Positions 6,810 to 26,784 of a stretch of 64,000 bases of DNA are shown piece by piece (the stretch's first letter is position 1; the number at the start of each line of letters is the position of its first letter). Origin of the DNA: Bacteroidota bacterium (GTDB taxonomy: Bacteria > Bacteroidota > Bacteroidia > NS11-12g > UBA955). A model generated the notes under the pieces. The model made no database searches and was not told the origin of the DNA. It worked only from the letters and a program-made list of their open reading frames with translations. The stretch is from positions 4,613 to 68,612 of the forward strand of contig JAURNR010000047.1 in assembly GCA_030830065.1 (NCBI GenBank), given 5' to 3'. A program made the position numbers and the translations under genes.

Positions 6810-6928
6810 TTGTTGTAAGATTTCAAATTTATGTGATTTAAGCGATAAACGGAAATTCCAATCATTACTAATGAAAGTCCTTGAATTTCCTTGACATTTA
6901 TTGCTTTTATAATTGATTATTTTTCTCA

Positions 6929-8035
6929 TTAATTCCTATTTAACCAAACTGTTGATGTCTTTGATTTCCATTCAGTATCACCTGAATATTTGTATTTCAA
7001 AATGACCGTATAAATTCCTTTTTTGCATTGCCTTCCTCTAAAGTCACCACCCCACTTACCCGTACAGTTATTAGACTCATATACAATTTGTTTTGTTGGG
7101 CCAATTACTCTCATTAAAAACTCCTTAGTAGTAGGCATCTCTGCGTAAAAGGAGTCATTAATACCATCGTTATTGGGGGTAAAAATATTCGGCACAATGA
7201 TATCTTGTTGAATACCATTATTAATTATAAATACTTTACGTTCGATTTTCTGATCACATTTTTTACCTTTTGCACTTATACTCACAGTAAATTCTTTAGA
7301 ATTCAATATATAGAATTTATGCTTTACTTCGAATTGATTTTCTAATATAAATTTGTTAAAATCTAAATCCCCCCAGTCTATTTCAACAGGAATATTTTCA
7401 TTGTTTCTTGCAACATTCACAAAATTCAATATGGCTGTTTGATCTTCAACCATTAGCTCGACACCCAGCAATCCACAGTTCACTGAAGTGGTTATTTGTT
7501 GCTCTGGTATTTGCCCTTCTTTAATGGGATTAGCAACAAAATATTCAGAGGTATCTTCAATGTAATTATTTTCTACATCACCTTTCTCTTCAACTACCGC
7601 ATCTATAATATTAGGTTCTCCAATTAATAACTGGGAATTGTTTCCGGTATATTTGGTAGGTTCTTCTATTGAATCTTTAGAAGTAAAATCTTCTTCAACA
7701 TTTGAAGATGTAGTTTTTGGTGAAATAAGTCCCTTTTTGATTTTGTTTTCATTTTGAACCGAATCAATAACAATTGTTTTGTCCAGATTACTTTGGTTAA
7801 ACCAAACAATAGAGGCTGCAGTTACAGAAACAACAGTTGCAACAACTGCTACTTTCACCCCCGTAACACCTGCTAACTTTGCAGCAATTTTCGATCCTTT
7901 ACTAACCGTTTGTGTAATTTGAGGATTTAAATTTCCTTGAATTGAATTAAAAACTGAACTTGGAGGATTAACCTTTGCGTCCCCTAATCCCTCTTTGAAT
8001 AGCTTATCGATATTTGAACCTAAATTACTCATCAC
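6929..8035 (-). CDS. Anti-sigma-factor-like single-pass membrane protein fused to a T9SS type B C-terminal sorting domain
   Basis: Start overlaps the upstream ECF sigma stop by 11 nt (ATGATGAGTAA). N-terminus DKLFKEGLGDAKVNPPSSVFNSIQGNL resembles the N-termini of Bacteroidota anti-sigma partners. Hydrophobic helix VKVAVVATVVSVTAASIVWF at about aa 61-82. C-terminus IIVPNIFTPNNDGINDSFYAE...GIYTVILKYKYSGDTEWKSKTSTVWLNRN is a type B CTD. Confidence 0.6.
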   Translation of the reverse strand: MMSNLGSNIDKLFKEGLGDAKVNPPSSVFNSIQGNLNPQITQTVSKGSKIAAKLAGVTGVKVAVVATVVSVTAASIVWFNQSNLDKTIVIDSVQNENKIKKGLISPKTTSSNVEEDFTSKDSIEEPTKYTGNNSQLLIGEPNIIDAVVEEKGDVENNYIEDTSEYFVANPIKEGQIPEQQITTSVNCGLLGVELMVEDQTAILNFVNVARNNENIPVEIDWGDLDFNKFILENQFEVKHKFYILNSKEFTVSISAKGKKCDQKIERKVFIINNGIQQDIIVPNIFTPNNDGINDSFYAEMPTTKEFLMRVIGPTKQIVYESNNCTGKWGGDFRGRQCKKGIYTVILKYKYSGDTEWKSKTSTVWLNRN

Positions 8036-8564
8036 CCAGCCATTTTTGCAATAACTTTCGTGCTTTAAACAATTGAGTTTTACTCGTGTTTTCTGAAATT
8101 CCTAAAATTGATGCAATCTCACTATGAGCATACCCTTCAATTGCATACATATTAAAAACAGTCCTGTAGCCTAAGGGCAACTGGCGCAATAGAGTCATCA
8201 AATATTTTTCGTTTAATGTATCTGAGGATTTTTCAGGAATTGAAACTTGAAGAGCATCATCATTCACATTCGTAAATAAATGTGAGCGGTCTTTTCTTAT
8301 GTAGTCAAGACATTGGTTCACACAAATACGCTTTAACCAACCCTCAAAAGAACCCTGAAATTTAAAGTTCCCCAGATTATTGAAAATTTTTATGTAAGAC
8401 TCTTGTAGCATGTCTTGAGCTTGATCTTCGTCCTTGCTGTAACGCAAACAAATTGCAAATAAAACGCTTGAAAAACGTTCATATAACTCTCGTTGAGCAT
8501 CGCTGCTTCCATCCAAACACTGCTGGATTATCGAGGCTTCGTTGCTGCGATTTTGAGATGCCAT
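8025..8564 (-). CDS. ECF-type RNA polymerase sigma-70 factor
   Basis: 179 aa. Region 2-like LYERFSSVLFAICLRYSKDEDQAQDMLQESYIKIF and region 4-like HTH YRTVFNMYAIEGYAHSEIASILGISENTSKTQLFKARKLL. Confidence 0.85.
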   Translation of the reverse strand: MASQNRSNEASIIQQCLDGSSDAQRELYERFSSVLFAICLRYSKDEDQAQDMLQESYIKIFNNLGNFKFQGSFEGWLKRICVNQCLDYIRKDRSHLFTNVNDDALQVSIPEKSSDTLNEKYLMTLLRQLPLGYRTVFNMYAIEGYAHSEIASILGISENTSKTQLFKARKLLQKWLGDE

Positions 8565-9766: not shown

Positions 9767-10162
9767 CTATTCTATATTCGATGAGATCTGATCGGCAATT
9801 AACGCTAAATCTTCTTTTGAAGGATTCATCTTCGGACGTGAGAAATTAATATCTTCAACTGATTGTAACGGAATTAAATGGATATGTGTATGAGGTACTT
9901 CAAGTCCAATTACAGCCGTACCAATACGTTTACAAGGCACAGTTTTCTCTATAGCTTTTGCCACAGGAATGGTAAACTTCCATAACTCAGCTAATTCTTC
10001 CGCTGGCAAATCATAGATGTAGTCTATTTCTTTTTTAGGAATACATAAAACATGTCCTTTTGCTAATGGCATTATATCTAAAAATGCAAGATGCTTTTCA
10101 TCTTCATGGATTTTATAGCATGGAATTTCGCCATTAACAATTTTAGTGAAAAGACTTGCCAT
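9767..10162 (-). CDS. HIT-family (histidine triad) nucleotide hydrolase
   Basis: 131 aa; histidine triad HTHIHLIP; conserved GEIPCYKIHEDE N-terminus. Confidence 0.85.
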   Translation of the reverse strand: MASLFTKIVNGEIPCYKIHEDEKHLAFLDIMPLAKGHVLCIPKKEIDYIYDLPAEELAELWKFTIPVAKAIEKTVPCKRIGTAVIGLEVPHTHIHLIPLQSVEDINFSRPKMNPSKEDLALIADQISSNIE

Positions 10163-10169
10163 TATAATT

Positions 10170-10643
10170 TTAAATTGAAATATCTATTATTTCTAATTTG
10201 ATTATCCCAGCTGGGACCTGAATTTCGCAAATATCACCCTTTGCCTTGCCTAAAAGGCCAGCACCAACCGCACTCTTTACAGATATTTTATTTTCTTTGA
10301 GATTTGCCTCTTTCTCTGACACCAACTGATAAACTGCTTCTTTTCCGGTATTGTGATTTTTCACTTGAACTTTGCAAAGTATGCTAGCCTTATCTGTGTT
10401 TAATTGAGAAGCATCTATTACACGAGCATTTGCTAAGGTATGTTCCATTAGAGCGATTTTATCTTCAAGATGACCTTGTGCTTCTTTTGCAGCGTCATAT
10501 TCTGCATTTTCACTTAAATCTCCCTTATCTCTCGCTTCTGCAATTGCCTGAACTATTTTTGGTCGTTCGATATGCTTTAAATCGTTCAACTTCTTTTTCA
10601 ATGTCTCCAAACCTTCTGGAGTAAAGTATTGAATATCACCCAT
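10170..10643 (-). CDS. greA: Transcription elongation factor GreA
   Basis: 157 aa; GDLSENAEYDAAKEAQ acidic finger motif; size and C-terminal FKBP-like domain. Confidence 0.9.
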   Translation of the reverse strand: MGDIQYFTPEGLETLKKKLNDLKHIERPKIVQAIAEARDKGDLSENAEYDAAKEAQGHLEDKIALMEHTLANARVIDASQLNTDKASILCKVQVKNHNTGKEAVYQLVSEKEANLKENKISVKSAVGAGLLGKAKGDICEIQVPAGIIKLEIIDISI

Positions 10644-10666
10644 AATTTTCGTTGTTAGTTTCTATC

Positions 10667-10700
10667 AAAAAAAAGTTGCATCAACCGCAGTTGATGCAAC
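10667..10700 (-). terminator. Rho-independent terminator closing the TBDR-cargo-PorV-like operon
   Basis: Perfect 11-bp inverted repeat GTTGCATCAAC-cgca-GTTGATGCAAC (10675-10700) preceded on the plus strand by A8 (10667-10674), i.e. hairpin then U8 on the minus-strand transcript. Confidence 0.65.
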
Positions 10701-10726
10701 ATTCTATTCAAATATAATAATTTTTT

Positions 10727-11839
10727 CTATTCAGCACTACCCAATCCGATGCGCACTCCAAAAGAATGAACACCGCTGAACGGGTTTGTTGCACGATAGT
10801 TGTAATCTAAAGAAATTACATTCTCATCATTAACATGCCAATCATAAGATAATCCTGCAAATGGACCAGTAAATGCCGAGGTTCTTGTATCTTCAGAGAA
10901 TATTCCTTCTTGATAACAAAATCCGCCTCTTACAGAAAGCATATCCTTGTAGGAATATTCTAGTGCTAGAGTAGACTGATTTGCTGAAAAAGCATGATTA
11001 GTGAAAGCAATACCAACAGTCAAACGATTGTCATACATATTGTCATCCCTATCTAGGCGAATATCATAAGATGCTCCAATGTTTAACAACGCCGGAAGTT
11101 TAATACCTGCTGTTTTAACTTGCATTGTTTTATCGAAATCACCATTTTGAATTACCGCCTTGTAACTCAAGCCATCACCACTAAAGGTCATATCTGGACC
11201 AATGTTCTTAACAGAAACTCCAAATTTGAAATCGTTTCTTTTACTCGCATTTCTACTTGGGAACAATGTAGTTGTGTATTGTACACCTGCGTCCAAAGCC
11301 ACCCCAGATACACTAGCATCAGGAATACCCTCAGATACCATTCTTGCCATTACACCTGCTGAAATAGAATTAGAAAAAGTTTTCGAATACGCTACACCAA
11401 TATTTGTCATATTCACTCGGTAAGTTCCAATTCCTCCGTGCGGATTTTCAACTGTGGTAATTTCAATTGGATCAATACCGAACTGCATTACTTGAATACC
11501 AAGAGAACCAGCATCGCCGTCTTCTCCTAATTTCAATGCCAAACCAAGATTATTGATTCCGATACCAGAACCCATTAACCATTCAGTTCTTGCGAATACT
11601 AATTCAGTTTTATTCGCCATTCTATCTAAGCCACCTACATTCATGAACATCGCTTCAGCACCATTAATACTTCCACCTGCTGTCCATCCTAAACCACCAG
11701 ATCTTGCCCAACCGTTGATTGTTAATTGTGCTGCACCCGCTTGACCCTGTCTTTCTGGGTTACCCGCTTTTAGTATATTAGAGTTAAGTCCAATACATGT
11801 AAGTGCTAAAGCAAAAATCAATTTATAATTTACGTTCAT
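10727..11839 (-). CDS. PorV/FadL-family outer-membrane beta-barrel (PorV-like T9SS shuttle protein paralog)
   Basis: 370 aa with signal peptide. N-terminal LTINGWARSGGLGWTAGGSINGAEAMFMNVGGL aligns to the PorV/FadL hallmark (L.I...ARSGGMGD.G.A.....A....NPA.L). Alternating amphipathic beta-strands. Sits 10 nt downstream of a T9SS CTD protein. Confidence 0.6.
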   Translation of the reverse strand: MNVNYKLIFALALTCIGLNSNILKAGNPERQGQAGAAQLTINGWARSGGLGWTAGGSINGAEAMFMNVGGLDRMANKTELVFARTEWLMGSGIGINNLGLALKLGEDGDAGSLGIQVMQFGIDPIEITTVENPHGGIGTYRVNMTNIGVAYSKTFSNSISAGVMARMVSEGIPDASVSGVALDAGVQYTTTLFPSRNASKRNDFKFGVSVKNIGPDMTFSGDGLSYKAVIQNGDFDKTMQVKTAGIKLPALLNIGASYDIRLDRDDNMYDNRLTVGIAFTNHAFSANQSTLALEYSYKDMLSVRGGFCYQEGIFSEDTRTSAFTGPFAGLSYDWHVNDENVISLDYNYRATNPFSGVHSFGVRIGLGSAE

Positions 11840-11849
11840 CTTTTTTCTA

Positions 11850-14800
11850 TTAATATGTATCTAAATCAACGGCATGCATTATTCCATACCAACGAATAAT
11901 TTTTTCTCCTAATCTTGGTGCGTTAACGTGAATCAAGTATAACCCACTAGCAATTGGCACATTACTACTATTCTTCAAATCCCACTCATAATATGTCAAA
12001 TCATCCGCTTTATTCACAGTGCGAATTAGATTACCTGCCATATCAAAAATGCGTATCTTACATTCTGGAGGGAGGTTGGTAATTTTTACACGGGAATCAA
12101 TAGGACTATTTTCATATTCACTATATCCACGATACGGATTAGGCACAATATTTACTAAATCTAAACTCTTAGTACCCACTTCGTCAGAGATTTTTGGAGC
12201 AATTGATGCACCATCGAACTCATACATTGGACGATCATCATTTCTATCGTCGCCGGTTGCGAAAGTCGTATATGCTTTTTGCACATGCACTTTGAATTTC
12301 ACCTCTGTAGGAGGAATCCCATTGTCCATATTGTAACCTGGGGCCAGGTATGTAGGAATAACCCAAGTTACTGTAGACATTAAACGAATCTTATTAAGAT
12401 TGGTTAATGCAGGTGATGTAAGTGCATTTTTAAATCGGTCGAAATTAGCTTCATCTGGACCTAAATAACGCTCTCCAGAAATATTTCGTGTCAAACCGTG
12501 GTTACCTGTTCCAAAAATGTATAAGAAATGTTTACCACCTATCGCAGGGTAAGATCCATTATCGTTATAAACCGTCGAAGTAGGATTCCAAATCATATCC
12601 CGACCGTTTTCACCGGTTAGATAACTGTCTTCCCCAAAGGCAATTTGCATACGCTCACCAGTTTCAAGATTAATTACATATCCTGGGAACCAGCTCAAGC
12701 CTTTACTTCCAGGTATATCGTTAAAGTCAATATCTTTAGAAGCTGCATCACGCATATTGAATTTCCAGATATTTCCCTCATTACCATTCTTAACCTCGTC
12801 ATCAGACATCTCTAATACCGGACAACGGGTCCACTTCGATTTATCTGGGGTGATAACCAATTCAAAACTATGTAATTCAGAAAGTGGATTTTGCAAGTGA
12901 GTAGCATTACCTGACCAAGCAAAACCAAATGTATTTCTACCATTTGCAGCACTGTACTTTTCACGAGCAGCCAATCCATAAGGCGCGATACGCCCGTTCC
13001 AGATTTTCTCATAAGATTGCCCTGGGTCTAAAGGTGCTCCATCAGTACCCATAAAGTCATGAAGATAACCATCAAAGGTAGCCCCTCTTCCATTGCTCCC
13101 AGAACGAATCCAATTTAGCCAAACACTACCAGAAGTAGGTGTACTTTGTGCATCATTATCCGCAATTGCAGTAAGCCATTGTCTTCCATTATCTTCCCAT
13201 TCTACGGTCCAATCCAACAATCCATTTTGTGGGTCTGCAGCAGAATTTTCGGAAGGGTTGTATACCTGATTAATTTCAACGCTTAAACCCCAATCAGATA
13301 AATTGTCCTTGGTTGCATTGTACTCACTTGGAATACCCTGTACGCTTTCAAAAGGTTGACCAATTGTAGTGTCAGAATATATAGTATCATTTCCATTATC
13401 GCCCTTGCGTACAAGAATCCAATCTGTGTTACGCGTCATTGAATCACGCAAACCAATTGAATTAGATGGTGTGCGCTCTTTGAAGATAAGTTCAAATTTA
13501 TCTATAGGAACTTTCAATGGATCAACTACCTTCACGTTAACCGGACCAAATCCGCCCATGTATGTAGGCTGAGTAACAAAATTTGTAGCTAGAATTTCTT
13601 TTACAGTTTCCTCTGTAAACTCGAGCGACATTCCTCCATTTCCACGACCTGAAATTCTCTTTAAAACGGGGCCACTTCCATAGGTAGAATTCAGTTCTGT
13701 TCCGAAATTCTCAGAATCTGTTTTATGAGGGGTAGCACGGTAAACTTGAATATTTCTACGACCCGCTAAAAACTGGTTTGGATCAATCTGCAAAGTATCG
13801 TCTGAAAGTACGGCATAACTCAAAATCATGTAGTAATAATTCTTGTAATCTACAAGAGATGTATTTGCTGACGTTGCAAAAAGGTCATTCTTGATACTAA
13901 AAGTATGTTGAACACCTTTGTCCGCTCCATCTACTTTTTCAACTGGTATCATTTGAGATAACTTTGGATCAAACACTTGATTTACTATTTGTCCTCGATT
14001 ATTTTGTACGTCACACTGGAATAACAAACGCGCCTTATCAATATTATCAAGATCAGAAGTATTTACCGTAGCATCTTTTAATTGATAAACTAAGTAACCT
14101 TCAAACTTATATGTTAACTCTTCGTTATTTGCATTCTTATACTTCTCTGTATAATTTTCAACTTTTGTAGAATTTGTATTCAAGAATTTCAAAACTAATT
14201 CTTGCTCTAATTCCTGTATTTCAACATCTGGAGCATCAGGCCCATCAAGAATTTTGAAATTATTGTTAAACAGAGTTTGTGCTTTATCCGAAGCAAGTTT
14301 TAATAGATCTAATGACCCAGTAGCACCACCACTTGTAGTTCTCGCCCATACAACACCTACGGTAATTCTTTGAACTTGACCAGGACGCAATAAGAAAGGA
14401 CCTGTAGATTGCAAGAAACGACGGTCACCAGGACGATTTCCCGAAGATTTCTCATCCCAACAACGACCAGCAAATTCAGGATCCGTACAACCAGGATACA
14501 TATAATTTGAAATTTCGCTTCCGCCAAATCCATTACCTCCCCAAGTCACATTTTGTCCACCTTTCCATTTACCTCTCAAGTAGTTATAAAATGAATTAGG
14601 ATTACCTCTATCAGGGTTACCGTTAATAGGATTTGCATCATTATTGTAATACATAAAGTGGCTCATCCCCATTTGATTACCAGCAGTATCTGTTGGACCC
14701 TCAAAATAATCAACACCTATAGTTGGAGGATTTAAACCATAGCCTAAAACACCTTCATCATCATCGTCACCATTGTAACAAAAACCTAAACTTCTTCCCA

Positions 14801-15743
14801 CATCACAACCCACGTAGTCATCTGCGTAATTACCTAGGTCAGCATCAACCCATTGACCCATGTAACAGTCATTAAGGGTTGTAAAACCTCTGTTGATGAT
14901 CTTGGTTGAATAAAAGGTCATATTATTCACTTCATCGTTGGTCGCAAACGCAAAGGCAGTAGTTTGACACTCCACACCAATTGGTTGACCCGAACTTTCA
15001 GAGTGAATATTTCCTTTATCGTTGTATACCCACCAAATGAACATATCCGGCTGACGATTAACTCCATTTTCAGCATTTGGACGTCTTTCATCTAAAACTG
15101 GATGCTCACCATCAAAAGGGTTATAAATTCCATCAGGAACAATTTCTTTATATGGAGCTAGGTAATTAGCTTCGGGCCCTAATCCTACCGAACGATTACT
15201 TCCCGCAGGCCAGTCACGAATACCAATACTTTGAGTTAAAAATTTAGACTCTTCAAATTCCTCTAATTCATCACGCGTAACTTTCCACATACGATCATAA
15301 GACTCACAACGCAATGGTTCAGTCGCTGCTGTAGTAGTATCCAAAGGACCAGGCCAAAAGTCAGAACCAAACTGTCGATAAGTCATTGCAGCTAACTTCA
15401 GGTTACCTCCGTTATCTTTACCACCTATCCAAATGGCACCTGCAAACAATGAGTGTTTTCTGACAGCGTTTGGATCATTAATTTTAGGAATTTCATATTT
15501 AGGATTATTTAAATCCCACCACATATCGCCTCCGTTCAACAACTTTGTTCTCACGTTGTTAATGTCTAAGTCTACCGATTGTGACGCTGGGTTACATGTG
15601 CTTGCAAATGCACCTGCTCTCTTATTCACACTATTCGACTTCGACGAAGATCGTCCCTGTATATTAACCACAGGACGTGCTGCCACCATGGATACCAGGG
15701 CGATACTTGCAGCTAATATTCCGAATTTTTTCGTCATTTTCAT
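11850..15743 (-). CDS. Large (1297 aa) secreted protein with T9SS type A C-terminal domain; synteny with the PorV-like gene makes a PorU-like protein possible
   Basis: Signal peptide MKMTKKFGILAASIALVSMVAA. C-terminal LVNIVPNPYRGYSEYENSPIDSRVKITNLPPECKIRIFDMAGNLIRTVNKADD...ASGLYLIHVNAP fits the Por_Secre_tail pattern, followed by a ~20-aa extension (RLGEKIIRWYGIMHAVDLDTY). Acidic Cys-containing core (DDYVGCDVGRSLGFCYNGDDDDEG). Confidence 0.7.
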   Translation of the reverse strand: MKMTKKFGILAASIALVSMVAARPVVNIQGRSSSKSNSVNKRAGAFASTCNPASQSVDLDINNVRTKLLNGGDMWWDLNNPKYEIPKINDPNAVRKHSLFAGAIWIGGKDNGGNLKLAAMTYRQFGSDFWPGPLDTTTAATEPLRCESYDRMWKVTRDELEEFEESKFLTQSIGIRDWPAGSNRSVGLGPEANYLAPYKEIVPDGIYNPFDGEHPVLDERRPNAENGVNRQPDMFIWWVYNDKGNIHSESSGQPIGVECQTTAFAFATNDEVNNMTFYSTKIINRGFTTLNDCYMGQWVDADLGNYADDYVGCDVGRSLGFCYNGDDDDEGVLGYGLNPPTIGVDYFEGPTDTAGNQMGMSHFMYYNNDANPINGNPDRGNPNSFYNYLRGKWKGGQNVTWGGNGFGGSEISNYMYPGCTDPEFAGRCWDEKSSGNRPGDRRFLQSTGPFLLRPGQVQRITVGVVWARTTSGGATGSLDLLKLASDKAQTLFNNNFKILDGPDAPDVEIQELEQELVLKFLNTNSTKVENYTEKYKNANNEELTYKFEGYLVYQLKDATVNTSDLDNIDKARLLFQCDVQNNRGQIVNQVFDPKLSQMIPVEKVDGADKGVQHTFSIKNDLFATSANTSLVDYKNYYYMILSYAVLSDDTLQIDPNQFLAGRRNIQVYRATPHKTDSENFGTELNSTYGSGPVLKRISGRGNGGMSLEFTEETVKEILATNFVTQPTYMGGFGPVNVKVVDPLKVPIDKFELIFKERTPSNSIGLRDSMTRNTDWILVRKGDNGNDTIYSDTTIGQPFESVQGIPSEYNATKDNLSDWGLSVEINQVYNPSENSAADPQNGLLDWTVEWEDNGRQWLTAIADNDAQSTPTSGSVWLNWIRSGSNGRGATFDGYLHDFMGTDGAPLDPGQSYEKIWNGRIAPYGLAAREKYSAANGRNTFGFAWSGNATHLQNPLSELHSFELVITPDKSKWTRCPVLEMSDDEVKNGNEGNIWKFNMRDAASKDIDFNDIPGSKGLSWFPGYVINLETGERMQIAFGEDSYLTGENGRDMIWNPTSTVYNDNGSYPAIGGKHFLYIFGTGNHGLTRNISGERYLGPDEANFDRFKNALTSPALTNLNKIRLMSTVTWVIPTYLAPGYNMDNGIPPTEVKFKVHVQKAYTTFATGDDRNDDRPMYEFDGASIAPKISDEVGTKSLDLVNIVPNPYRGYSEYENSPIDSRVKITNLPPECKIRIFDMAGNLIRTVNKADDLTYYEWDLKNSSNVPIASGLYLIHVNAPRLGEKIIRWYGIMHAVDLDTY

Positions 15744-15753
15744 TAATTCTTTT

Positions 15754-18700
15754 TTAGTTCAAACTGAAACGGATTCCCAAACGGATGGTACGTGGTCTAT
15801 TCCAGTTACCTGTTTGAGAGTTTAACAATAAGCGGTATAAGTCGGTATAACTTTGTGCATCCACTTGATTTCTTATCAATAGCTGACCTTGCGGTGACGT
15901 TAAGAAACCATCATCATTAGGTTGACCAGTGTAAGGGAATACTCCAGTAACATTCCAAGTATTAAGTAGGTTATTAACCCAAAGGAATGCCGCAAAACGC
16001 AATGGATTTTTTGAATCACCACGATTAAGCTGGAATGATTTAGTTAAGTTAAAGTCAAAGTTATACTGCCATGGCAAACGTGCTCCAAATGGAACACCCT
16101 TAATCTGCGCACGGTCAACAGCACCAATTTGCACAGGTCTTACTGTTGGAGTATATGGACCACCGCTATATGTATTGGCAATAATGTTGATACTAGTATT
16201 TTTCAAAACTTCCTTACCGAACAGAATAGGTCCTTTGTATAGATTTCTGCGATTTCTATCACGTCCTCCGGCCCAAGCCCAAGTTGCAGACAACTTGATG
16301 TTGTGGCGAATATCCAAATCACCCAAAGGAATTACAGTTCTCAAATTTGGCTGGTTAGAAGCGATTAACGCTGCCTGAGAGTTGATGTTTGATCCAGTAC
16401 CATCAGCAAACTGCAACATATAACTCGCAGAAAGAGTCATCGGACCAATATCTCTCATTACAAAATTTCCACGGAATCCTGTAATTGTTGCGAAATCAAT
16501 ATTTCTGTATGTTGAATATGTAACAGGATATCCCTGATTGATTTGATAGAGTCCAAAATCATTTCTTATTTCTGAATAGGACGCCGCTAACTCCAGTCCT
16601 TTATCATTTCTTCTACCAAAAATTTGTTTAAATCCTACTTCATAATCCGTCTTCAAACGAGAATTTAATGAACCGTTTGCTAAAGTAGAACCCTGTCTAA
16701 ACTTCAAAAAGTAAACATCGTCAATAGAAACAAACGACGCTCCAGCGTTTGGACGCTGTGCTAAAACATCGTAACTAACGTAGAATGACTTTCTCTTGTC
16801 GAGAGGAAATGAGAACCAGACACGAGGTAACAAGTTTACTATTGGAGTATAGTCCATGAAGGTAGCTTCAGTTACTTCTTGAGTATCTGTTCTGTATAAG
16901 TATGGTGCAATACGTCCATTTACTGTTTTGTTCGCCAAGAACTCAGGGTTTCTTTGTTCCGAACCGTCGGCATTAAACCACTTATCTCCCATACGGTATC
17001 CTACGATTTGAGTAGGAGATTCCATATCGTTCACATAAACTTTTGCATCCTCAGCAATATTGGAAGGGTGATTAATTGGTAAACCATTAATCTCACCAAC
17101 TTCAGCTGCTGTTTTAATTGGATATAATGAATATGGATCTGCCAACACAATTTGGTTTGCATCGTAACGTTCCATACGAAGTCCTAGACGGAAGATCAAG
17201 TCTTTAAATTGGAACTGGTCTTGTAACCAAGCAGCAATATAAATTGGTTGGAAAGCACCGATTGTGCGCTTATCTGGATCATTCAAGAATTCAGAAATAG
17301 AAGGTTTTCCTTTTACCTTATTTCCTAAATGATCATATCCAAAGTAATTAACATATCCATTACCATTGTTCAATAACTCATTCGCATTGAACATGTCTAA
17401 ACTAAAATCTCCAGGTTTATAGCTGTTGATATCTACAAACGTTCTTTCATCAATAGCTTTGCCATAAACATCAGTGGCTCCTTGAGAAATTAATTTATTT
17501 CTAAAATTGCGATCAAAAGTAGATTGCTCTTCATAATTCACCAATCTATTATAGCGGATTGTATCAGTAAATACTCCATTTTCATCATACGATAAAATAG
17601 GATTTTCGATATCCAATTCACCGATATGTTTATTCATTAACTGACGCATTAAGATCCATAAACCGTTTGCGTTTAAACCATAACCTCTATTAATATTTTG
17701 CTCATAATAAAAACCAGCTTGCAAATCATGAGGAGTACGCTGTCTGCCACCTTGTGTTTTTGGCTTAACTTGCATCTGACCCAAAGCAAATAATGAATAT
17801 TTTTCAGATTGGTTCCTACTCCATCCACCAACGGTTGTTCCAGGAGTAGACCAAAGCGAATAAACGTTTACAGGGTTGTAACCGTTCAATAAACCTTGGC
17901 TAGCTAGAACTGTCAAAGGGTTTGTGATTTTTGCACCTCTTTGGGTGTAAAAATCGTATACATTTGAGGTGTATCTTGCACGAACAGGATTCAAGTCGCT
18001 CGCCTGGTAATCTAACAGAGTATCCATGTAACCTATATGCTCCCAATAGTTACTTAACTGAACATAGTTTCCAAACTGATCACGAACAACTCTTGGGTCC
18101 TTGTTTGGATTTTGTTGTGCATCTGTGTGGGAGTATGCAAATACTTCCGTTGGATAAGCTGTAAATGACCCTACATATCCATAATTAAAAACATCATCTA
18201 AATGATCTGCATTTCTTGAGAAAGACCAAGCATTTTGATATTCTGCACGAACAGTGTAGAATGCAGATTTAATATTACTACGCTTGTCGACTTTAAAATT
18301 CTGACGGAACTGAAGATAAGATCTGAAAGTATGGTTATCGATTCTTGCAGTATTCGCAAAGTTTAAAATATTATTTGTTACGCTTCTTCCTCCGCCATAA
18401 AAGTAAGATGCAAAAGCTGTAAGCGATATATATTTATTGGGATTAAACTCTAGTTTTCCAATGAAGTTTGAGTTAAACTGTTGTGAGTTTGGGCGAGCTG
18501 CAATATTTTGGAAATCAGACTCTCGTAAGAAAGAAGCAGAATGCACGAAACCATTTGGAGTAATGGTCAACGGATTTTGCTCAATCTCCGACATTTTCTC
18601 ATCATTTAACACATAAACACCTGTACGTGTGGGTGAAGGATCGTAGTAATAACCAACGTTTCCGTTTAACGTAAAACCTAGCTTTACGAGCTTATCGGTT

Positions 18701-19500
18701 GTTCCATTGGCATTTTTCTTTTTTTGAACCCACAATGGCCCCGAAACAAATCCTTCCAATGTACTGTATCCATAAGGATCTAAAAACTGGGAAGTTATTC
18801 CTTCAAAGATTGAAATATATTTATCTGTCGCACTCTTGGATGTGTAGGAAAATGCTCCACCCGTTAAGTCACCATACATGGCTGGAATACCACCGATATT
18901 TACAGATAGCTGATCCACTCCTAAAGATGGAATAGCACCACTACCGATTACACGCATACCATCAACGAATGTACCATTACCGTCTGAACGCGTTCCTCTA
19001 ACGGAAATACCTTGACGTGATTCAACAATTGCAGAGTTCGTGGAGGTTAATGCACCCATACCACGCCTTCCACTATTTATCATCTGCTTTCCGTCAATCG
19101 AAGCCTCATTTTGCTCCATTTGAATAACCTTTTTCGATGCTTTAGTGGAAATCACAACCGCCGTCATTGAGGAAGTCATGTTTACAGTCTTAGGTTCATT
19201 CAATCCTGCACGTAGCGTTAAATCCGTAATTTTCTGGGTTGAAAATCCGTCTTTTGATGCTTCCATGTCATAAGTACCAGGGTTTAAGGTTTGGAAAATT
19301 ACATTTCCATCCATGTCTGTAGTATCATATGCTTTTTTGATACCGTTTAAATACATGTTAACCATTACCCCACTCATGCGTTTACCATCACCGTCTAAAG
19401 CGGTCACCCGAAAATCCGCAAAGTTGGTCTGAGCAAATGTAATTGCTGAAAACATTCCAGCAATTACCAAGAGCGACCATTTCAGTAGTTTATCTCTCAT
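15754..19500 (-). CDS. TonB-dependent-receptor-like outer-membrane protein with N-terminal carboxypeptidase-regulatory-like domain and plug (1248 aa)
   Basis: Signal peptide. CarboxypepD_reg-like GVMVNMYLNGIKKAYDTTDMDGNVIFQTLNPGTYDMEASKDGF. Plug-like ISVRGTRSDGNGTFVDGMRV...IPAMYGDLTGGAFSYTSKS. Long beta-rich C-terminal region. No SusD-like partner follows. Confidence 0.7.
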   Translation of the reverse strand: MRDKLLKWSLLVIAGMFSAITFAQTNFADFRVTALDGDGKRMSGVMVNMYLNGIKKAYDTTDMDGNVIFQTLNPGTYDMEASKDGFSTQKITDLTLRAGLNEPKTVNMTSSMTAVVISTKASKKVIQMEQNEASIDGKQMINSGRRGMGALTSTNSAIVESRQGISVRGTRSDGNGTFVDGMRVIGSGAIPSLGVDQLSVNIGGIPAMYGDLTGGAFSYTSKSATDKYISIFEGITSQFLDPYGYSTLEGFVSGPLWVQKKKNANGTTDKLVKLGFTLNGNVGYYYDPSPTRTGVYVLNDEKMSEIEQNPLTITPNGFVHSASFLRESDFQNIAARPNSQQFNSNFIGKLEFNPNKYISLTAFASYFYGGGRSVTNNILNFANTARIDNHTFRSYLQFRQNFKVDKRSNIKSAFYTVRAEYQNAWSFSRNADHLDDVFNYGYVGSFTAYPTEVFAYSHTDAQQNPNKDPRVVRDQFGNYVQLSNYWEHIGYMDTLLDYQASDLNPVRARYTSNVYDFYTQRGAKITNPLTVLASQGLLNGYNPVNVYSLWSTPGTTVGGWSRNQSEKYSLFALGQMQVKPKTQGGRQRTPHDLQAGFYYEQNINRGYGLNANGLWILMRQLMNKHIGELDIENPILSYDENGVFTDTIRYNRLVNYEEQSTFDRNFRNKLISQGATDVYGKAIDERTFVDINSYKPGDFSLDMFNANELLNNGNGYVNYFGYDHLGNKVKGKPSISEFLNDPDKRTIGAFQPIYIAAWLQDQFQFKDLIFRLGLRMERYDANQIVLADPYSLYPIKTAAEVGEINGLPINHPSNIAEDAKVYVNDMESPTQIVGYRMGDKWFNADGSEQRNPEFLANKTVNGRIAPYLYRTDTQEVTEATFMDYTPIVNLLPRVWFSFPLDKRKSFYVSYDVLAQRPNAGASFVSIDDVYFLKFRQGSTLANGSLNSRLKTDYEVGFKQIFGRRNDKGLELAASYSEIRNDFGLYQINQGYPVTYSTYRNIDFATITGFRGNFVMRDIGPMTLSASYMLQFADGTGSNINSQAALIASNQPNLRTVIPLGDLDIRHNIKLSATWAWAGGRDRNRRNLYKGPILFGKEVLKNTSINIIANTYSGGPYTPTVRPVQIGAVDRAQIKGVPFGARLPWQYNFDFNLTKSFQLNRGDSKNPLRFAAFLWVNNLLNTWNVTGVFPYTGQPNDDGFLTSPQGQLLIRNQVDAQSYTDLYRLLLNSQTGNWNRPRTIRLGIRFSLN

Positions 19501-19656
19501 ATTATTTATCCAAATGAACTTTTCAGGATGGAATTTGCATTACACCCTTTAAACGGCAAGTTTATCGAAAAATCAAGGATTTAGCAAGTTTATTTTCGCC
19601 TTTTATCGAGCGACTTGACCACAGCCTATACACTGCAATTATAAAATCAAAGGGAA

Positions 19657-20598
19657 TTATCCTTTATAATTCAATATTTTAGATAACAAAAAGTCTGAAA
19701 TATTGCGATAACTTTCCACTGACCAACCCGCAACATGTGGCGAAAACATTACATTTGATTTTACCTTAAAAGTATCCCAAATCGCCCATTTAGACCGAGG
19801 GATTTTGGAAATTGGTTCGAACGGAAATACATCGAGCAAAACTGCACTTAACTGTTTTTTTTCGATAGCATCAACCACATCTTCAAATATCATGGTCTCT
19901 CCTCTGCTGGCATTCATAAAAATGGGTTGACATCTCATATTAGAAAAAACTGGTTTTGAAAACCATCCTCTGGTCTCTTCAGTTAAAGGAACATGCACAG
20001 AAATTACATCAGCTTTTTCGCATAATTCATTGAATTCTACTGATTCTAATTGTGAGGAATCTTCGATGTCTTTGTATTTGTCATAAACCAAGAGATTGGC
20101 ACCCAGTGCCATTAGTTTATTTCCAAGAGCAGAACCAGTATGTCCATACCCAATTATACCAACTTTCTTACCCTTTAGTTCAACTCCGCGATGGTATACA
20201 CGATCCCAATTACCCGATTTCACATTATCATTTCCACTCGGAATTTTATGCAAATATGACAATAGCATACCCAACATATGCTCTGCAACTGAATTGGCAT
20301 TGGCACCCGAAGCATCGAAAATTTCAATGTTCTTCTGATTCAAGTAATTTTGATCAATATTGTCAATACCAGCACCAGCTCGTGCCACCCACTTTACAGA
20401 ATCCAGATAATCTAAAAGCGGTCTCTCAATTAAAATCTTAGAGCGCACTACTATACCCTCAGGTTGAACGTCTTTAATTTTATCTGCAACAGCAGACTTA
20501 TTAATATTTGGTAAATAAATTACCTCGAAGCCATTATTCTCAAGTCCATGAATTAATGACTCATATACATCATCTACAATTAGGACTTTCCGCATCAA
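19657..20598 (-). CDS. D-isomer-specific 2-hydroxyacid dehydrogenase (NAD-binding)
   Basis: GKKVGIIGYGHTGSALGNKL Rossmann motif; 313 aa; PHVAGWSVES C-terminal catalytic region. Confidence 0.8.
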   Translation of the reverse strand: MMRKVLIVDDVYESLIHGLENNGFEVIYLPNINKSAVADKIKDVQPEGIVVRSKILIERPLLDYLDSVKWVARAGAGIDNIDQNYLNQKNIEIFDASGANANSVAEHMLGMLLSYLHKIPSGNDNVKSGNWDRVYHRGVELKGKKVGIIGYGHTGSALGNKLMALGANLLVYDKYKDIEDSSQLESVEFNELCEKADVISVHVPLTEETRGWFSKPVFSNMRCQPIFMNASRGETMIFEDVVDAIEKKQLSAVLLDVFPFEPISKIPRSKWAIWDTFKVKSNVMFSPHVAGWSVESYRNISDFLLSKILNYKG

Positions 20599-22159: not shown

Positions 22160-22819
22160 ATGATCCGTTTTCAAAAGGTTCAACGCTTAGTGCAAATTGA
22201 AATAGCACTTGACTACCGGAAACCCAGTGTAATTGGATCGGTTATATTACAGCTTGGTGTAACAGCAATGCTTAGTATGTTGTCGCAACCAAGAATTACC
22301 GGTAGTATTTGGAATACTTTATTTTGGATAACATTAATTCTTGGTACAATTACTGCGATTTCAAAGAACTTTACCCTTGTTTCAAAAGGAAGATGGCTCT
22401 ATTGGAATCAGTTATCTTCACCCCTAGAGACTCTAATATCCAAAATGATTTACGGTTGGATTAACATGATCGCTATGAGTTTAATCAACTTATTATTTTT
22501 TGCTTGGTTTATGGGAATCCCTATAATATACATAGGCAACTATTATATTTTGCTAATATTAACTACTGGAGGAATCTCAACAGTATATACTTTTATTGGG
22601 GCGATAGCTTCAAAAACTGGAAATTCTGGCTTTTTAGCCCCTGTATTAAGCTTACCCTTAATTATGCCTTTAATATTAGTTGGAATAAAAGCTTCTCGAA
22701 AAACATTAAACCCTGTTTTGGTTAGTTCTCTAAACAAGGATTTAATGCTATTAGGTGCTCTTGACCTTATGATAATTATTTTATCCGCGGTTCTTTTTCA
22801 GGCACTTTGGAAAGACTAG
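22160..22819 (+). CDS. CcmB-family (heme-exporter-like) ABC-2 permease, orphan
   Basis: 219 aa, 6 predicted TM. GGISTVYTFIGAIASKTGNSGFLAPVLSLPLIMPLILVG resembles the CcmB G..T..F.GA....G....L..LPL.IPLLI segment. No ccmA/ccmC neighbour. Confidence 0.45.
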   Translation: MIRFQKVQRLVQIEIALDYRKPSVIGSVILQLGVTAMLSMLSQPRITGSIWNTLFWITLILGTITAISKNFTLVSKGRWLYWNQLSSPLETLISKMIYGWINMIAMSLINLLFFAWFMGIPIIYIGNYYILLILTTGGISTVYTFIGAIASKTGNSGFLAPVLSLPLIMPLILVGIKASRKTLNPVLVSSLNKDLMLLGALDLMIIILSAVLFQALWKD

Positions 22820-24903
22820 TCCTTCCAACATTTCAATACTTCTAGGGCTACATCGAGACCTGCGTCTTTTGAATATCCCTTCATCCAAACCTTACGCTGC
22901 TCAGTTTTTATGCTATCACCTTGCACAGCATTTAGGTCTATTGATAATGGATATAGAGTATCAGATTTTCCAACATATTTAAAATCTTTAAACTCCTTAT
23001 CGCGCTCGTTGATTTCTTTCTTAAATTCTTTGTAAGATTCCAGCGATAGTGGATAGGTCATTCCCTTGCGCAACTCAGCAATTTGCTTAGCCCTTTTTGA
23101 TACTAATTTATAATAATCAGATTTGGAAATTTCTTTCTGTCCTTGCTTTATTGCTCTTTTAAGAGACTTATTTTCTAATTCAGTGTATTTCGCTTTTGGA
23201 ATTTCGTCAAATTCGAGATGGTAATCCATTTCTTTTTCACCCCTATCAATGTCATCATAGATATCTGGAAGAACAACATCGGGCTCGACACCTACTAATT
23301 GTGTAGTGCCTCCATTTATGCGATAAAATTTTTGTATCGTTACTTTCAAATCTCCGAATCCACGAGGGAATATTTTTGTAGATCCACCCCTAAGTGGAAT
23401 CATAGTCTGAACTGTCCCTTTACCAAAGGTACTTTTAGAACCAACTATTACTGCTCTCTTATAATCTTGTAATGCAGCTGCCAAAATTTCGGAAGCCGAC
23501 GCACTGTAGGTATTAGTCATTACAACTAAGGGCCCATCATATTGGACGCGTGTATCCTGATCACTTGCCTGTTGGATTCTTCCGCTTGGATCTTTAACCT
23601 GAACAATTGGCCCTGATGAAATAAATAATCCACTCATATCTATCGCATCTGCCAAACTTCCACCGCCATTGTTCCTTAAATCTAAGATGATTCCCTTGAT
23701 TTTTTCGTCCTTGAGTTTTGAAATTTCCTTCGCAACATCCCCTGAGGAATGTCTTCCTCTGCCTTCAGCCGAAAAATCAGCGTAAAAACTTGGTAATTGA
23801 ATAACTCCATACTTATCACCTTTAAACTCAACAAGGGCACTTCTAGCATATGACTCCTCAATTACCACAACATCGCGAACAATCGGAACCACATGAATAA
23901 CTCCGTCTGGTTTTTTCACCGTTAAGCGGACTTCTGTTCCTTTTTTTCCTCGAATTAATTGAATAGCATCGTCTAGCTTCATATCAACTACATCTACTGG
24001 ATCTTCTTCAGCTTGTCCAACTTTTAAAATCAAGTCACCAGCCTTAAGATCGCCTTGTTTATAGCTCGCACTTCCAGGGACTATTCTTTCTACTTTGATG
24101 TAACCATCGCGTTCTGATAGAGTTGCGCCAATACCTTCCAACTTACCGGTCATTGAAATATCAAAATTGTCTCGATCAGCAGGTGGGAAATAATTTGTAT
24201 GAGGATCGTAAACTTCAGCAATTGTATTAGCAAAAAATGCAATTTGGTCTTGCCGGTCCATCTTTCTCCAACGCTTAAACCAATTCTCCACAAGCTTCTT
24301 TGTTTCCTCTCTTGCCTTTAACTCGAGAGTATCAAAAGGTTTTATATTCTTAATTGAATCTGGTCCTTTCAAGTTTTTTTGACCTTCAAGTTTATTATAT
24401 AGTTTATCAACGGTTTGATATCGAGTCCATAATGTCCAGAGTTCGGTAATCTCATTTAGGCTTTTGGGATAGTGTCTTTCATCTTCACCTTGAAAGTAGT
24501 TTAGTTCTTCTGAGTAGTTGTAAGGCTTTTCTAATTGTGCTTTAACTAATGGCTCAATAAAGTCAAGACGGCCTTGCATCACCTGCCAAACGGTATCGAA
24601 AAAATCGAATCTACCCGCATTAATCTGATCGTCAATTGAGTATTTATATGCACTAAAATTAGCAATATCCTCTTGAGTAAAAAACTGCTTATTGCCATCC
24701 ATATTTTCCAAAATATTTTGAAAAATCTTAACGGAGAATGAGTCGTTAATTTCAAGTGGTGCGTAATGCTGACGATTTAAAGTGTAAATGATTCTTTTGA
24801 GAACCGGTTCCTCGTCCGAAAAGGGTTTGTTACTACAAAATGAAAGTACTAACAGCGCTGCTGCAATCGTACTTAATGAAATCCACTTCTTATATCCTAA
24901 CAT
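22816..24903 (-). CDS. Carboxyl-terminal processing protease (S41 family) with PDZ domain
   Basis: 695 aa; PDZ-like GDLILKVGQAEEDPVDVVDMKLDDAIQLIRGKKGTEVRLTV; S41 catalytic region VVMTNTYSASASEILAAALQDYKRAVIVGSKSTFGKGTVQ. Confidence 0.85.
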   Translation of the reverse strand: MLGYKKWISLSTIAAALLVLSFCSNKPFSDEEPVLKRIIYTLNRQHYAPLEINDSFSVKIFQNILENMDGNKQFFTQEDIANFSAYKYSIDDQINAGRFDFFDTVWQVMQGRLDFIEPLVKAQLEKPYNYSEELNYFQGEDERHYPKSLNEITELWTLWTRYQTVDKLYNKLEGQKNLKGPDSIKNIKPFDTLELKAREETKKLVENWFKRWRKMDRQDQIAFFANTIAEVYDPHTNYFPPADRDNFDISMTGKLEGIGATLSERDGYIKVERIVPGSASYKQGDLKAGDLILKVGQAEEDPVDVVDMKLDDAIQLIRGKKGTEVRLTVKKPDGVIHVVPIVRDVVVIEESYARSALVEFKGDKYGVIQLPSFYADFSAEGRGRHSSGDVAKEISKLKDEKIKGIILDLRNNGGGSLADAIDMSGLFISSGPIVQVKDPSGRIQQASDQDTRVQYDGPLVVMTNTYSASASEILAAALQDYKRAVIVGSKSTFGKGTVQTMIPLRGGSTKIFPRGFGDLKVTIQKFYRINGGTTQLVGVEPDVVLPDIYDDIDRGEKEMDYHLEFDEIPKAKYTELENKSLKRAIKQGQKEISKSDYYKLVSKRAKQIAELRKGMTYPLSLESYKEFKKEINERDKEFKDFKYVGKSDTLYPLSIDLNAVQGDSIKTEQRKVWMKGYSKDAGLDVALEVLKCWKD

Positions 24904-24924: not shown

Positions 24925-26784
24925 TTATTCAGATTCCTCAGCATATTTATCCAAACCAAGTGTATGAATTCCTTGATCAAAAACAATATCAACTGGAATA
25001 TTTGCAGCATTTAAAATGTCGAGTTGTGCTTTTAAACTTTCGCCAATTTTACCTCTTTCACTTAACATCTTCTCTACACCAGCTAGATCGCCATCACCCT
25101 GTAAATGCAATAATTCAGCTGCTAATCCCTCAATTGCTGTTCGCATTTTAGGTATATCAACTTTGATTCCTTTACTGGTATTTTCTAAACAGCCGCTTTT
25201 GATTAACGTATTATACGTGATCATATTGGCTTTACCATGAGCACTAGACGCACCAAATCTTACAGAACGATATACTGATGCAACAAAGGTTACATAATAA
25301 TCTTCTAAATCACCGTCTAACTCTTTCATATCAATTAACTTGGTTACCATATATAGACCAAGGACATCTGCCTTACATTCCTCGATTGCAGAATAAGTTG
25401 CTCCCAAAGCCTCTCTTACTGTTTGATTAGGATTTTCAATTACATTCTTAATCCCTAAACCATGTGCAACTTCATGGAACATTACATTAGAAAAGAAGGA
25501 ATTAAAATTGATTTTCTTACGCTGAGACGGGTGAATTACTTTCTGGGAAATTGGAATTACAATTTCATCAAATTTGGCCTTCATTGTATTCTTTAGCTGT
25601 GACCGACGAGTTCCAAAGTATTCTTGAATAACCTCGTGATTTGGCAAATTAACCGCAATAGTTTTACTGCCCGAATTACAATCACCCGCGTAGTAAATAG
25701 CATCAAAAACAGCCAATTGACTCATTGGTTTTTCTGGCTTTTCTACTGGCGGAAAACCTTCAATTTCAATAATCTCAGAAACTGCTTCCACGCCTTCTTC
25801 TATAATATTTCCATCTTCGTCCGTTGTTGGCTCTTCCTTCTCGGTTACACTATTAGCACCAAGTTCTGGTTTATATTTTTCTTCAACAGGCAAACCTGCT
25901 TGTAATTGAGGTAAAAGAGCAACATATTTTTCTAATTTCTTACCCCATTCACGGTCACGCACTAAAACATAGGCCTCAAATGAAGTTTTAGAACCTGTAA
26001 GCTTGTCTTCGTAGTTTTCAATAGGCCCAATAATAATATCAAGGTGTGAATTTAAATTTAACCAGGAAATATCAGACATTACATAATCATTAGTAAATAG
26101 ACCGTCAATACGTTGGGTTAGATATTCAGCAAAATCAGGGTCTTCATCTTGTATTGCTTCAGAAGCTGCTCGAAGTTCTTCGGTAAGTGGTATCAATTCG
26201 TTTTGATATACCATTGAATAACTTTCAATCTCAATTTCTTTACCATCCAAAGATGGGAAACGCTCGCGAGGTGGAGGCATTTGTCCCATTTTTTGATATT
26301 TCTCGGCATCTTTTGGATTAAAGTAATAAACAACCGTGTATGGATCAAAGACTCTGAACTTCATATCTTCCATAACTTGATCAGGGTCAAAACCATCGGG
26401 ATAGAAATTCACTCCCTTTGTTTTTGATCCTATACCATCCAAAAATGGAGCATCATTATTCAATCGATCCCATGGACCATAATTGATTTTTATAAACTGC
26501 TTTAAATCTGGATCTTTAATTCCCTTTAAAGCATCTTCTTTTTTCATGTATGTCTGCATCCAGAATATATTGTCCGCATGTTGAGCTGCTTTTATAAGGT
26601 GTACAATACATTTTCTTTCTGCTTCTGTCAGCTGACTTGTATCTGTAGTCAATGTAATCTGCTTGTAACTAATTAATCTATCCTTTATTGGATAACCCTT
26701 TTTTAGTTTTTGAGCATTTAAGCCACTGGCAATAATTAAACTTGTTGTAAATACTATTGCGCGTTGTATTTTCTGTAAGGTCAT
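24925..26784 (-). CDS. Secreted M49 (dipeptidyl-peptidase III)-like zinc metallopeptidase
   Basis: Signal peptide. HEVAHGLG (HExxH variant of the DPP III HELLGH motif) followed by EECKAD (DPP III second zinc-ligand motif EECRAE). Confidence 0.55.
   Translation of the reverse strand: MTLQKIQRAIVFTTSLIIASGLNAQKLKKGYPIKDRLISYKQITLTTDTSQLTEAERKCIVHLIKAAQHADNIFWMQTYMKKEDALKGIKDPDLKQFIKINYGPWDRLNNDAPFLDGIGSKTKGVNFYPDGFDPDQVMEDMKFRVFDPYTVVYYFNPKDAEKYQKMGQMPPPRERFPSLDGKEIEIESYSMVYQNELIPLTEELRAASEAIQDEDPDFAEYLTQRIDGLFTNDYVMSDISWLNLNSHLDIIIGPIENYEDKLTGSKTSFEAYVLVRDREWGKKLEKYVALLPQLQAGLPVEEKYKPELGANSVTEKEEPTTDEDGNIIEEGVEAVSEIIEIEGFPPVEKPEKPMSQLAVFDAIYYAGDCNSGSKTIAVNLPNHEVIQEYFGTRRSQLKNTMKAKFDEIVIPISQKVIHPSQRKKINFNSFFSNVMFHEVAHGLGIKNVIENPNQTVREALGATYSAIEECKADVLGLYMVTKLIDMKELDGDLEDYYVTFVASVYRSVRFGASSAHGKANMITYNTLIKSGCLENTSKGIKVDIPKMRTAIEGLAAELLHLQGDGDLAGVEKMLSERGKIGESLKAQLDILNAANIPVDIVFDQGIHTLGLDKYAEESE

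Follow-up and report, generated by a model that had tools for sequence, protein, structure and literature searches.

Two type IX secretion system (T9SS) proteins, PorZ and PorU, retain their C-terminal sorting domain (CTD) and use it to dock on the barrels PorQ and PorV, respectively; it has been suggested in a review that cognate PorV-like barrels shield such CTDs from cleavage, and the means by which PorZ and PorU avoid cleavage is a question that the field has yet to answer (PMC10202324). In another set of described systems, SusC-SusD, BtuB-BtuG and XusA-XusB, a TonB-dependent barrel is encoded beside an extracellular partner. We examined a locus with features of both, consisting of three consecutive minus-strand genes (g1, g2 and g3) within a 64,000-nt stretch of contig JAURNR010000047.1 from a Bacteroidota bacterium, hereafter the window. 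The genes encode a TonB-dependent transporter (TBDT; g1), a T9SS cargo-class protein with a CTD resembling those of PorZ and PorU (g2), and a barrel of the PorV/PorQ family (g3). Each part is of a known kind; the combination is an undescribed variant, and no paper describing the trio as a system was found. The reading we favour, to which we would give close to an even chance, is that g2 is exported by the T9SS, keeps its CTD, and would be held by g3 beside g1 as an extracellular capture partner.

The g2-g3 pair shares with PorZ-PorQ and PorU-PorV the pairing of a type A-class CTD protein with a PorV/PorQ-family barrel, CTD docking being described for those pairs (PMC10202324) and proposed here for g2. 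It differs from them in that mature g2 is unrelated to PorZ (beta-propellers) or PorU (a C25 peptidase), g3 falls short of both equivalog models, and the pair shares its operon with a TBDT. By comparison with the partners in SusC-SusD, BtuB-BtuG and XusA-XusB, g2 is not a lipoprotein (it has no lipobox), is not SusD-like, has a mass of ~140 kDa, and would reach the surface via the T9SS, where a third protein would hold it. Where PorP/SprF-like barrels go with type B CTD cargo (for example SprB-SprF), a cognate barrel gene likewise lies beside the cargo gene, the barrel being thought to anchor the cargo (PMC9143113, PMC10202324), whereas the trio has a type A-class CTD, a PorV/PorQ-family barrel, and a transporter in the module. 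The gene order of the trio is the same as that of tonB-hypA-hypB in a Rhodothermus marinus alginate locus, where a TonB-dependent receptor, a T9SS type A sorting-domain protein and a PorV/PorQ family protein are drawn and, in the part of the paper depicting them, left unexplained (PMC9530828). There hypA is only ~727 aa and the locus lies inside a polysaccharide utilisation locus; the likeness to the trio that is compared here is one of order and annotation (PMC9530828). Some Porphyromonas species have T9SS and porV/Q genes, likewise unexplained, in their hmu-like operons (PMC12106395). An earlier note on this DNA, made from the letters alone, had called the arrangement not a textbook one; this is fair, but as far as these two accounts of their loci go (PMC9530828, PMC12106395) the order is not unique. 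Bacteroidota beta-barrel assembly machinery (BAM) complexes were considered for their mention of PorV/FadL and set aside, their components being different; BamG, a FadL-type barrel holding the surface protein BamH, is analogous to the trio in principle, the two BAM structures being unrelated (PMC12578637, PMC12611786).

The three genes form an operon that has a conserved promoter-like block upstream and a terminator of its own. By the list of open reading frames (ORFs) both gaps in the window, g1-g2 and g2-g3, measure 10 nt, with g2 and g3 in different reading frames, and a scan of 10100-19800 found no terminator between the three genes; the sole strong terminator in that interval is the hairpin after g3, GTTGCATCAAC-TGCG-GTTGATGCAAC at 10675-10700 followed by T8, between g3 and greA. 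The tight operon and the perfect 11-bp terminator hairpin of the earlier note are thus both borne out. Its "exactly 10 nt" is correct for the window and fails as a meaningful feature: because the gaps vary among 62 related loci (g1-g2, 10-47 nt, median 23; g2-g3, median 19), tight linkage is the conserved feature and the 10-nt figure is incidental. Upstream of g1, the sole part of the spacer conserved in 10/10 aligned loci is a 40-nt block, AAACTTGnTAAATCCTTGATTTTTCGATAAACTTGCC (19556-19593), containing the direct repeat ATAAACTTGC twice (19556-19565 and 19584-19593, 28 nt apart); these are the two exact copies of the repeat in the whole window. The Bacteroidota promoter consensus is TTG / TAnnTTTG, and the block reads as a putative promoter of this type (TTG, 20 nt, TAAACTTG). 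The assignment is made because the block is conserved across loci, and not from a sigma-70 promoter scan, which, like counts of TAnnTTTG, gave chance level only. With its repeated ATAAACTTGC the block may serve as a promoter, as a site for a regulator, or as both at once. Upstream of g1 neither a riboswitch nor an RNA family was found, no Rfam family reached its gathering threshold in the 64 kb, and the window holds no tRNA genes.

The linkage of the three genes is conserved far beyond the window. Among 79 recovered g2 loci the g1-g2-g3 order is present wherever the contig extends far enough, and all loci examined keep it, to as little as ~30% identity. A scan of a genome collection returned only close relatives among metagenome-assembled genomes (MAGs); contigs reached via distant g1 homologues (MAGs labelled Bacteroidales, Sphingobacteriaceae and others) again carried the trio, with a g2 of 1300-1535 aa, different genes upstream, and greA-HIT unchanged downstream. 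The most remote trio (L087:232-8138) occupies an 8-kb contig of 66% guanine plus cytosine (GC), probably from a different class or phylum of the Fibrobacterota-Chlorobiota-Bacteroidota (FCB) group, with identities of 29-31% for g1, 31-33% for g2 and 26% for g3; it retains the CTD signature and the terminal LDTF. Since the whole trio is carried on so remote a contig, the module far predates the low-GC lineage to which the window belongs. The gene-neighbourhood check proposed in the earlier note therefore came out in its favour, the trio being kept across distant MAG loci and on the 66% GC contig, and the g1 receptor gene is a conserved partner rather than a chance neighbour. In every lineage examined the trio is followed immediately by greA and then a HIT-family gene (window 9767-10643; loci L001-L084), also where the genes upstream are not the same. 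The genes occur as 1:1:1 per locus, with the exception of L076 and L032. One MAG contig (L076:6163-23076) reads g1-g2-g3-g2'-g1'-greA, the second g2/g1 pair being swapped and lacking a second g3, which could be a true duplication sharing one barrel or an artefact of co-assembly. At L032:1112-4928 an extra g1-like copy, in two ORFs, stands upstream of a normal trio and is possibly a frameshift or pseudogene.

The g3 protein carries a signal peptide and occurs as one copy per locus. It scored 115.9 bits against NF033709, the PorV/PorQ family model (cut-off 90), in agreement with the PorV-family assignment first proposed for it, and stayed below the equivalog cut-offs for PorV (53 vs 250), PorQ (30.2 vs 220) and PorV2 (29.6 vs 325). 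Because the family model was passed and the three equivalogs were failed, g3 is by its profile scores a paralogue within the PorV/PorQ family, and not canonical PorV, PorQ or PorV2. When the g3 family profile was searched against the Protein Data Bank (PDB), it matched PorV as present in the SprA translocon structures (chain 6h3i_F) with E 1.4e-12.

The CTD of g2 was compared with the models for generic type A cargo, PorZ and PorU. The type A model TIGR04183 gave 18.2 bits with the whole window protein and 22.8 with its isolated tail, just under the cut-off of 23, which 7/10 sampled g2 homologues passed; on this basis the type A CTD claimed in the earlier note is a probable one, and its sequence shows PNP, GxY and K motifs. 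The isolated window tail matched the CTD region of PorZ with E 5e-10 and the PorU CTD with E 1.7e-3. The full PorZ model NF052228 gave 32.8 bits (cut-off 260; residues 1192-1273 only) and the full PorU model NF033707 16 bits (cut-off 420; CTD only). The CTD portion of the PorZ model scored best in 14/14 g2-family tails, remote trios included (26-40 bits), followed by TIGR04183 (17-31 bits) and the PorU CTD (12-23 bits) in varying order; in the two most remote tails the PorU score exceeded that for TIGR04183. Generic type A cargo tails from the fetched loci (3/3) behaved differently, with 35-45 bits for TIGR04183, PorZ at 13 bits or less or absent, and PorU absent. A hidden Markov model (HMM) of the g2-family CTD matched g2 proteins only in ~1.7 Mb of fetched locus DNA, and generic cargo tails scored 2-5 bits with it. 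By these profile comparisons, the g2 CTD is a divergent subclass of the type A class. It is conserved at least as well as mature g2 (majority fraction 0.73-0.74 vs ~0.65); the C-terminus reads D-L-D-[ST]-[YF] in 118/118 homologues, and 120/141 distant representatives end in an aromatic residue. That the organism uses the T9SS follows from two proteins encoded elsewhere in the window, both with type B sorting domains.

The remainder of g2 has few recognisable features. By inspection, a Sec signal peptide spans ~aa 1-22 (MKMTKKFGILAASIALVSMVAA, then RP) without a lipobox cysteine. Pfam found no domain on g2, a SusD-like match included. No catalytic domain was detected, and the search for a C25 His/Cys dyad called for in the earlier note gave no C25 Pfam match and only two cysteines invariant in the family (aa 50 and 146). 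The g2 family profile produced one marginal match in the PDB, with no PorZ or PorU chain among its matches, phmmer searches of the g1, g2 and g3 proteins against PDB sequences returned no matches, and no whole-protein structural relative of g2 was found. The likeness of one domain is to a galactose-mutarotase-like supersandwich, the kind of fold that glycoside hydrolases often have. We conclude that g2 is a T9SS-class cargo of novel fold. Its family comprises >7,000 clusters at 50% identity, and the names retrieved for these are all MAG entries, nearly all "hypothetical protein"; in everything sampled the family comes only from uncultured lineages, without functional annotation.

For g1 the earlier note had proposed a receptor with CarboxypepD_reg and plug domains, and this is substantiated by profile and model together. 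Pfam Plug was sub-threshold on the window protein (E 0.29), but the g1 family profile matched the plug of Cir (colicin I receptor) in the PDB with E 4.5e-10 and also matched N-terminal extension domains from a TBDT and a SusC homologue; members throughout the family keep the plug motif, and full-length homologues at 31-37% identity have both Plug and TonB_dep_Rec (Pfam). The AlphaFold2 (AF2) model of residues 105-1248 (pLDDT 85.4, pTM 0.81) shows the full TBDT fold, a plug-sized domain followed by ~22 long strands. With Foldseek it matched PfeA, YddB, FptA, FpvA, PhuR, Cir, BtuB, XusA and other TBDTs with E 1e-26 to 1e-21, over the whole length of the targets (TM 0.6-0.74 normalised to target), g1 carrying ~450 residues beyond these ~700-aa TBDTs. 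On the evidence of the model g1 is a genuine TBDT, and it has the N-terminal extension typical of those in Bacteroidota. A SusC-type assignment was rejected: no NCBIfam model, SusC/RagA included, matched g1 at E 0.01 or better, none of the top fold matches is SusC-type, and the neighbouring g2 has no SusD-like Pfam match.

Table 1. Features of the g1-g2-g3 locus (window coordinates, or residues of the protein where marked aa).
Feature	Position	Strand	Description
Gene 1 (g1)	15754-19500	-	ORF 1248 aa, TBDT
g1 signal peptide	~aa 1-24		
g1 CarboxypepD_reg N-terminal extension	aa 33-108		Pfam E 1.5e-9
g1 TonB-box-like segment	~aa 113-130		
g1 plug	~aa 119-236		
g1 barrel	C-terminal to plug		~22 strands, AF2 model
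Gene 2 (g2)	11850-15743	-	ORF 1297 aa, T9SS cargo-class protein
g2 mature region	12171-15743	-	aa 1-1191 of 1297; Sec signal peptide and beta-rich multidomain part
g2 CTD and stop codon	11850-12170	-	~aa 1192-1297; type A-class T9SS CTD, PorZ/PorU-like subclass
Gene 3 (g3)	10727-11839	-	ORF 370 aa, PorV/PorQ-family barrel
Intrinsic terminator	10667-10700	-	Perfect 11-bp stem, 4-nt loop, T8; closes operon
Promoter-like block upstream of g1	19556-19593	-	Putative -33 TTG 19585-19587, 20-nt spacer, -7-like TAAACTTG 19557-19564

As one possibility the earlier note had suggested a capture module in which a PorV paralogue belonging to the module attaches or passes on the cargo next to a TonB-dependent importer, and this is the reading best supported by the data, though it stays a proposal. 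In it, g1, g2 and g3 would be co-transcribed from the putative conserved promoter and their products would form one outer-membrane uptake complex. The g2 protein would be exported by Sec and then, by way of its CTD, by the T9SS; its CTD would stay uncleaved and bound to the g3 barrel, as PorZ on PorQ or PorU on PorV, so that the 140-kDa protein would be held at the cell surface beside or over the g1 transporter. There g2 would capture, and perhaps process, a substrate and hand it on to g1, doing for it what SusD-type and other surface lipoproteins (SusD, BtuG, XusB) do for other Bacteroidota transporters. We infer retention of the CTD because it is PorZ/PorU-like, is as conserved as the core of the protein, and has the invariant DLD[ST][YF] end; contact between g2 and g3 would follow the PorZ and PorU precedents. 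A capture partner, with contact between g2 and g1 and transport inward, is suggested because TBDTs with surface partners are known (BtuB-BtuG and XusA-XusB, BtuB and XusA being among the g1 fold matches). That the substrate might be a glycan is a weak guess, prompted by the one carbohydrate-binding-like fold in g2.

We advance more tentatively, and with greater doubt than confidence, the broader idea that the trio typifies a widespread class of Bacteroidota outer-membrane machine, as yet undescribed, in which a T9SS cargo instead of a lipoprotein serves as the extracellular partner of a TBDT and is permanently lodged in a dedicated PorV paralogue by an uncleaved PorZ/PorU-type CTD with the DLD[ST][YF] end. 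If this is true, the rule that a cognate barrel keeps the CTD would reach ordinary cargo, beyond two housekeeping proteins of the T9SS, and nutrient uptake would depend directly on the T9SS; the Rhodothermus alginate locus, with its like architecture, suggests a general alternative to SusCD. Were the docking model right, it would provide a second solution, based on the T9SS, to what SusD-type lipoproteins achieve, it would explain the role of many unassigned "PorV/PorQ family" paralogues, and a PorZ/PorU-like CTD with the terminal motif would predict a cargo that stays barrel-bound and uncleaved. Conservation in the g2 family matches that of housekeeping enzymes, and its g1 and g3 partners lie on either side of it in every case.

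Several points weigh against a docked capture partner. The control set in the CTD comparison consisted of just three generic cargo tails, and g2 has no recognisable binding or catalytic domain, which makes the capture role a guess. In distant loci g2 is 50-52% conserved and the g1 transporter 42-47%; higher conservation of g2 than of g1 is odd for a nutrient-binding surface protein and could reflect a core envelope function instead. The neighbours of the trio are housekeeping genes (accC, 2-hydroxyacid dehydrogenase, greA, HIT, holB); the locus does not belong to a polysaccharide utilisation locus and has neither regulator nor enzyme genes attached to it. The synteny may in part be inherited gene order, greA-HIT being conserved too. 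Finally, most g1 homologues have a TonB-box-like "EVxVxxYKxPLI", and the window protein has the diverged "SMTAVVISTKASKKVIQM" in its place.

The explanation that competes best, unlikely in our view but to be taken seriously, makes g3 a dedicated shuttle only: it would take g2 at the SprA translocon, the CTD would be cleaved, and g2, anchored to lipopolysaccharide (LPS) or released, would be an extracellular enzyme or binder whose products are imported by g1, with no stable complex of the three proteins. Canonical PorV is a shuttle (PMC12578637, citing Glew 2017; PMC10202324). The higher score of g3 against PorV than against PorQ, the passing of the generic type A model by 7/10 sampled tails, and the glycoside hydrolase-like fold of one g2 domain are all in keeping with such a role. 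Against it, no catalytic domain was detected. A signal destined for cleavage, moreover, is not expected to be as conserved as mature g2 or to end in an invariant motif, and the g2 CTD lies nearer to the CTDs of the retained-CTD proteins PorZ and PorU than to those of generic cargo.

The trio could also be a device for export or envelope biogenesis, which we regard as rather improbable; the TBDT would work outward, like Oar for PopC, or the three proteins would make up an accessory T9SS or outer-membrane maintenance complex. Oar has a CarboxypepD_reg N-terminal domain, as g1 does. In Myxococcus xanthus, Oar is a large TBDT linked to a secreted protein and required for protein secretion (PMC6434023). 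It acts there in PopC export and has no T9SS and no PorV-like partner, the comparison with g1 being one by description. The housekeeping neighbourhood, the constant greA link, the single copy per locus and the unusually high conservation of g2 would fit such a device, and so would the failure to find a substrate-linked regulator or riboswitch. On the other hand, g2 already has a T9SS export signal, which makes a second exporter needless; nothing ties the trio to known T9SS or BAM components, and T9SS core families gave no matches except for the CTD and the PorV/PorQ family.

That the three genes are adjacent through inherited gene order, with no joint function, is very improbable: the flanking housekeeping genes are indeed syntenic over the same loci, but the trio stays intact while the upstream genes change, it recurs in the very remote 66% GC contig, its junctions are short and without an internal terminator, and the map of a locus not related to this one, from another phylum, has the same three-part order (PMC9530828). 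A divergent porU-porV locus, the other possibility raised in the earlier note, or a porZ-porQ attachment-complex locus, in either case with the transporter upstream by chance, is almost wholly implausible and was rejected: for all the resemblance of the g2 CTD to those of PorZ and PorU and the membership of g3 in their barrels' family, matches of the PorU and PorZ models are confined to the final ~80-110 residues of g2 (16 vs 420 and 33 vs 260 bits), its profile finds neither protein in the PDB, it has neither a C25 domain nor the dyad, g3 stays under the cut-offs of the PorV (53 vs 250) and PorQ equivalogs, and the transporter gene is a conserved partner, so that orthology to PorU and canonical PorV beside a non-conserved receptor, which that note had named as the outcome that would overturn its proposal, is not what was found.

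Other genes in the window touch on secretion or proteolysis. A gene for an extracytoplasmic function (ECF) sigma factor (8025-8564, minus strand) is followed by two overlapping genes with type B (CHU_C) T9SS CTDs, at 6929-8035 (368 aa) and 1257-6929 (1890 aa, with PKD), both on the minus strand; no PorP/SprF-like gene adjoins these two within the window. Peptidase genes near the trio encode an S41 C-terminal processing peptidase (22816-24903), an M49-like peptidase (24925-26784), a C1-like peptidase (27943-29133) and an M28 peptidase (44499-45560).

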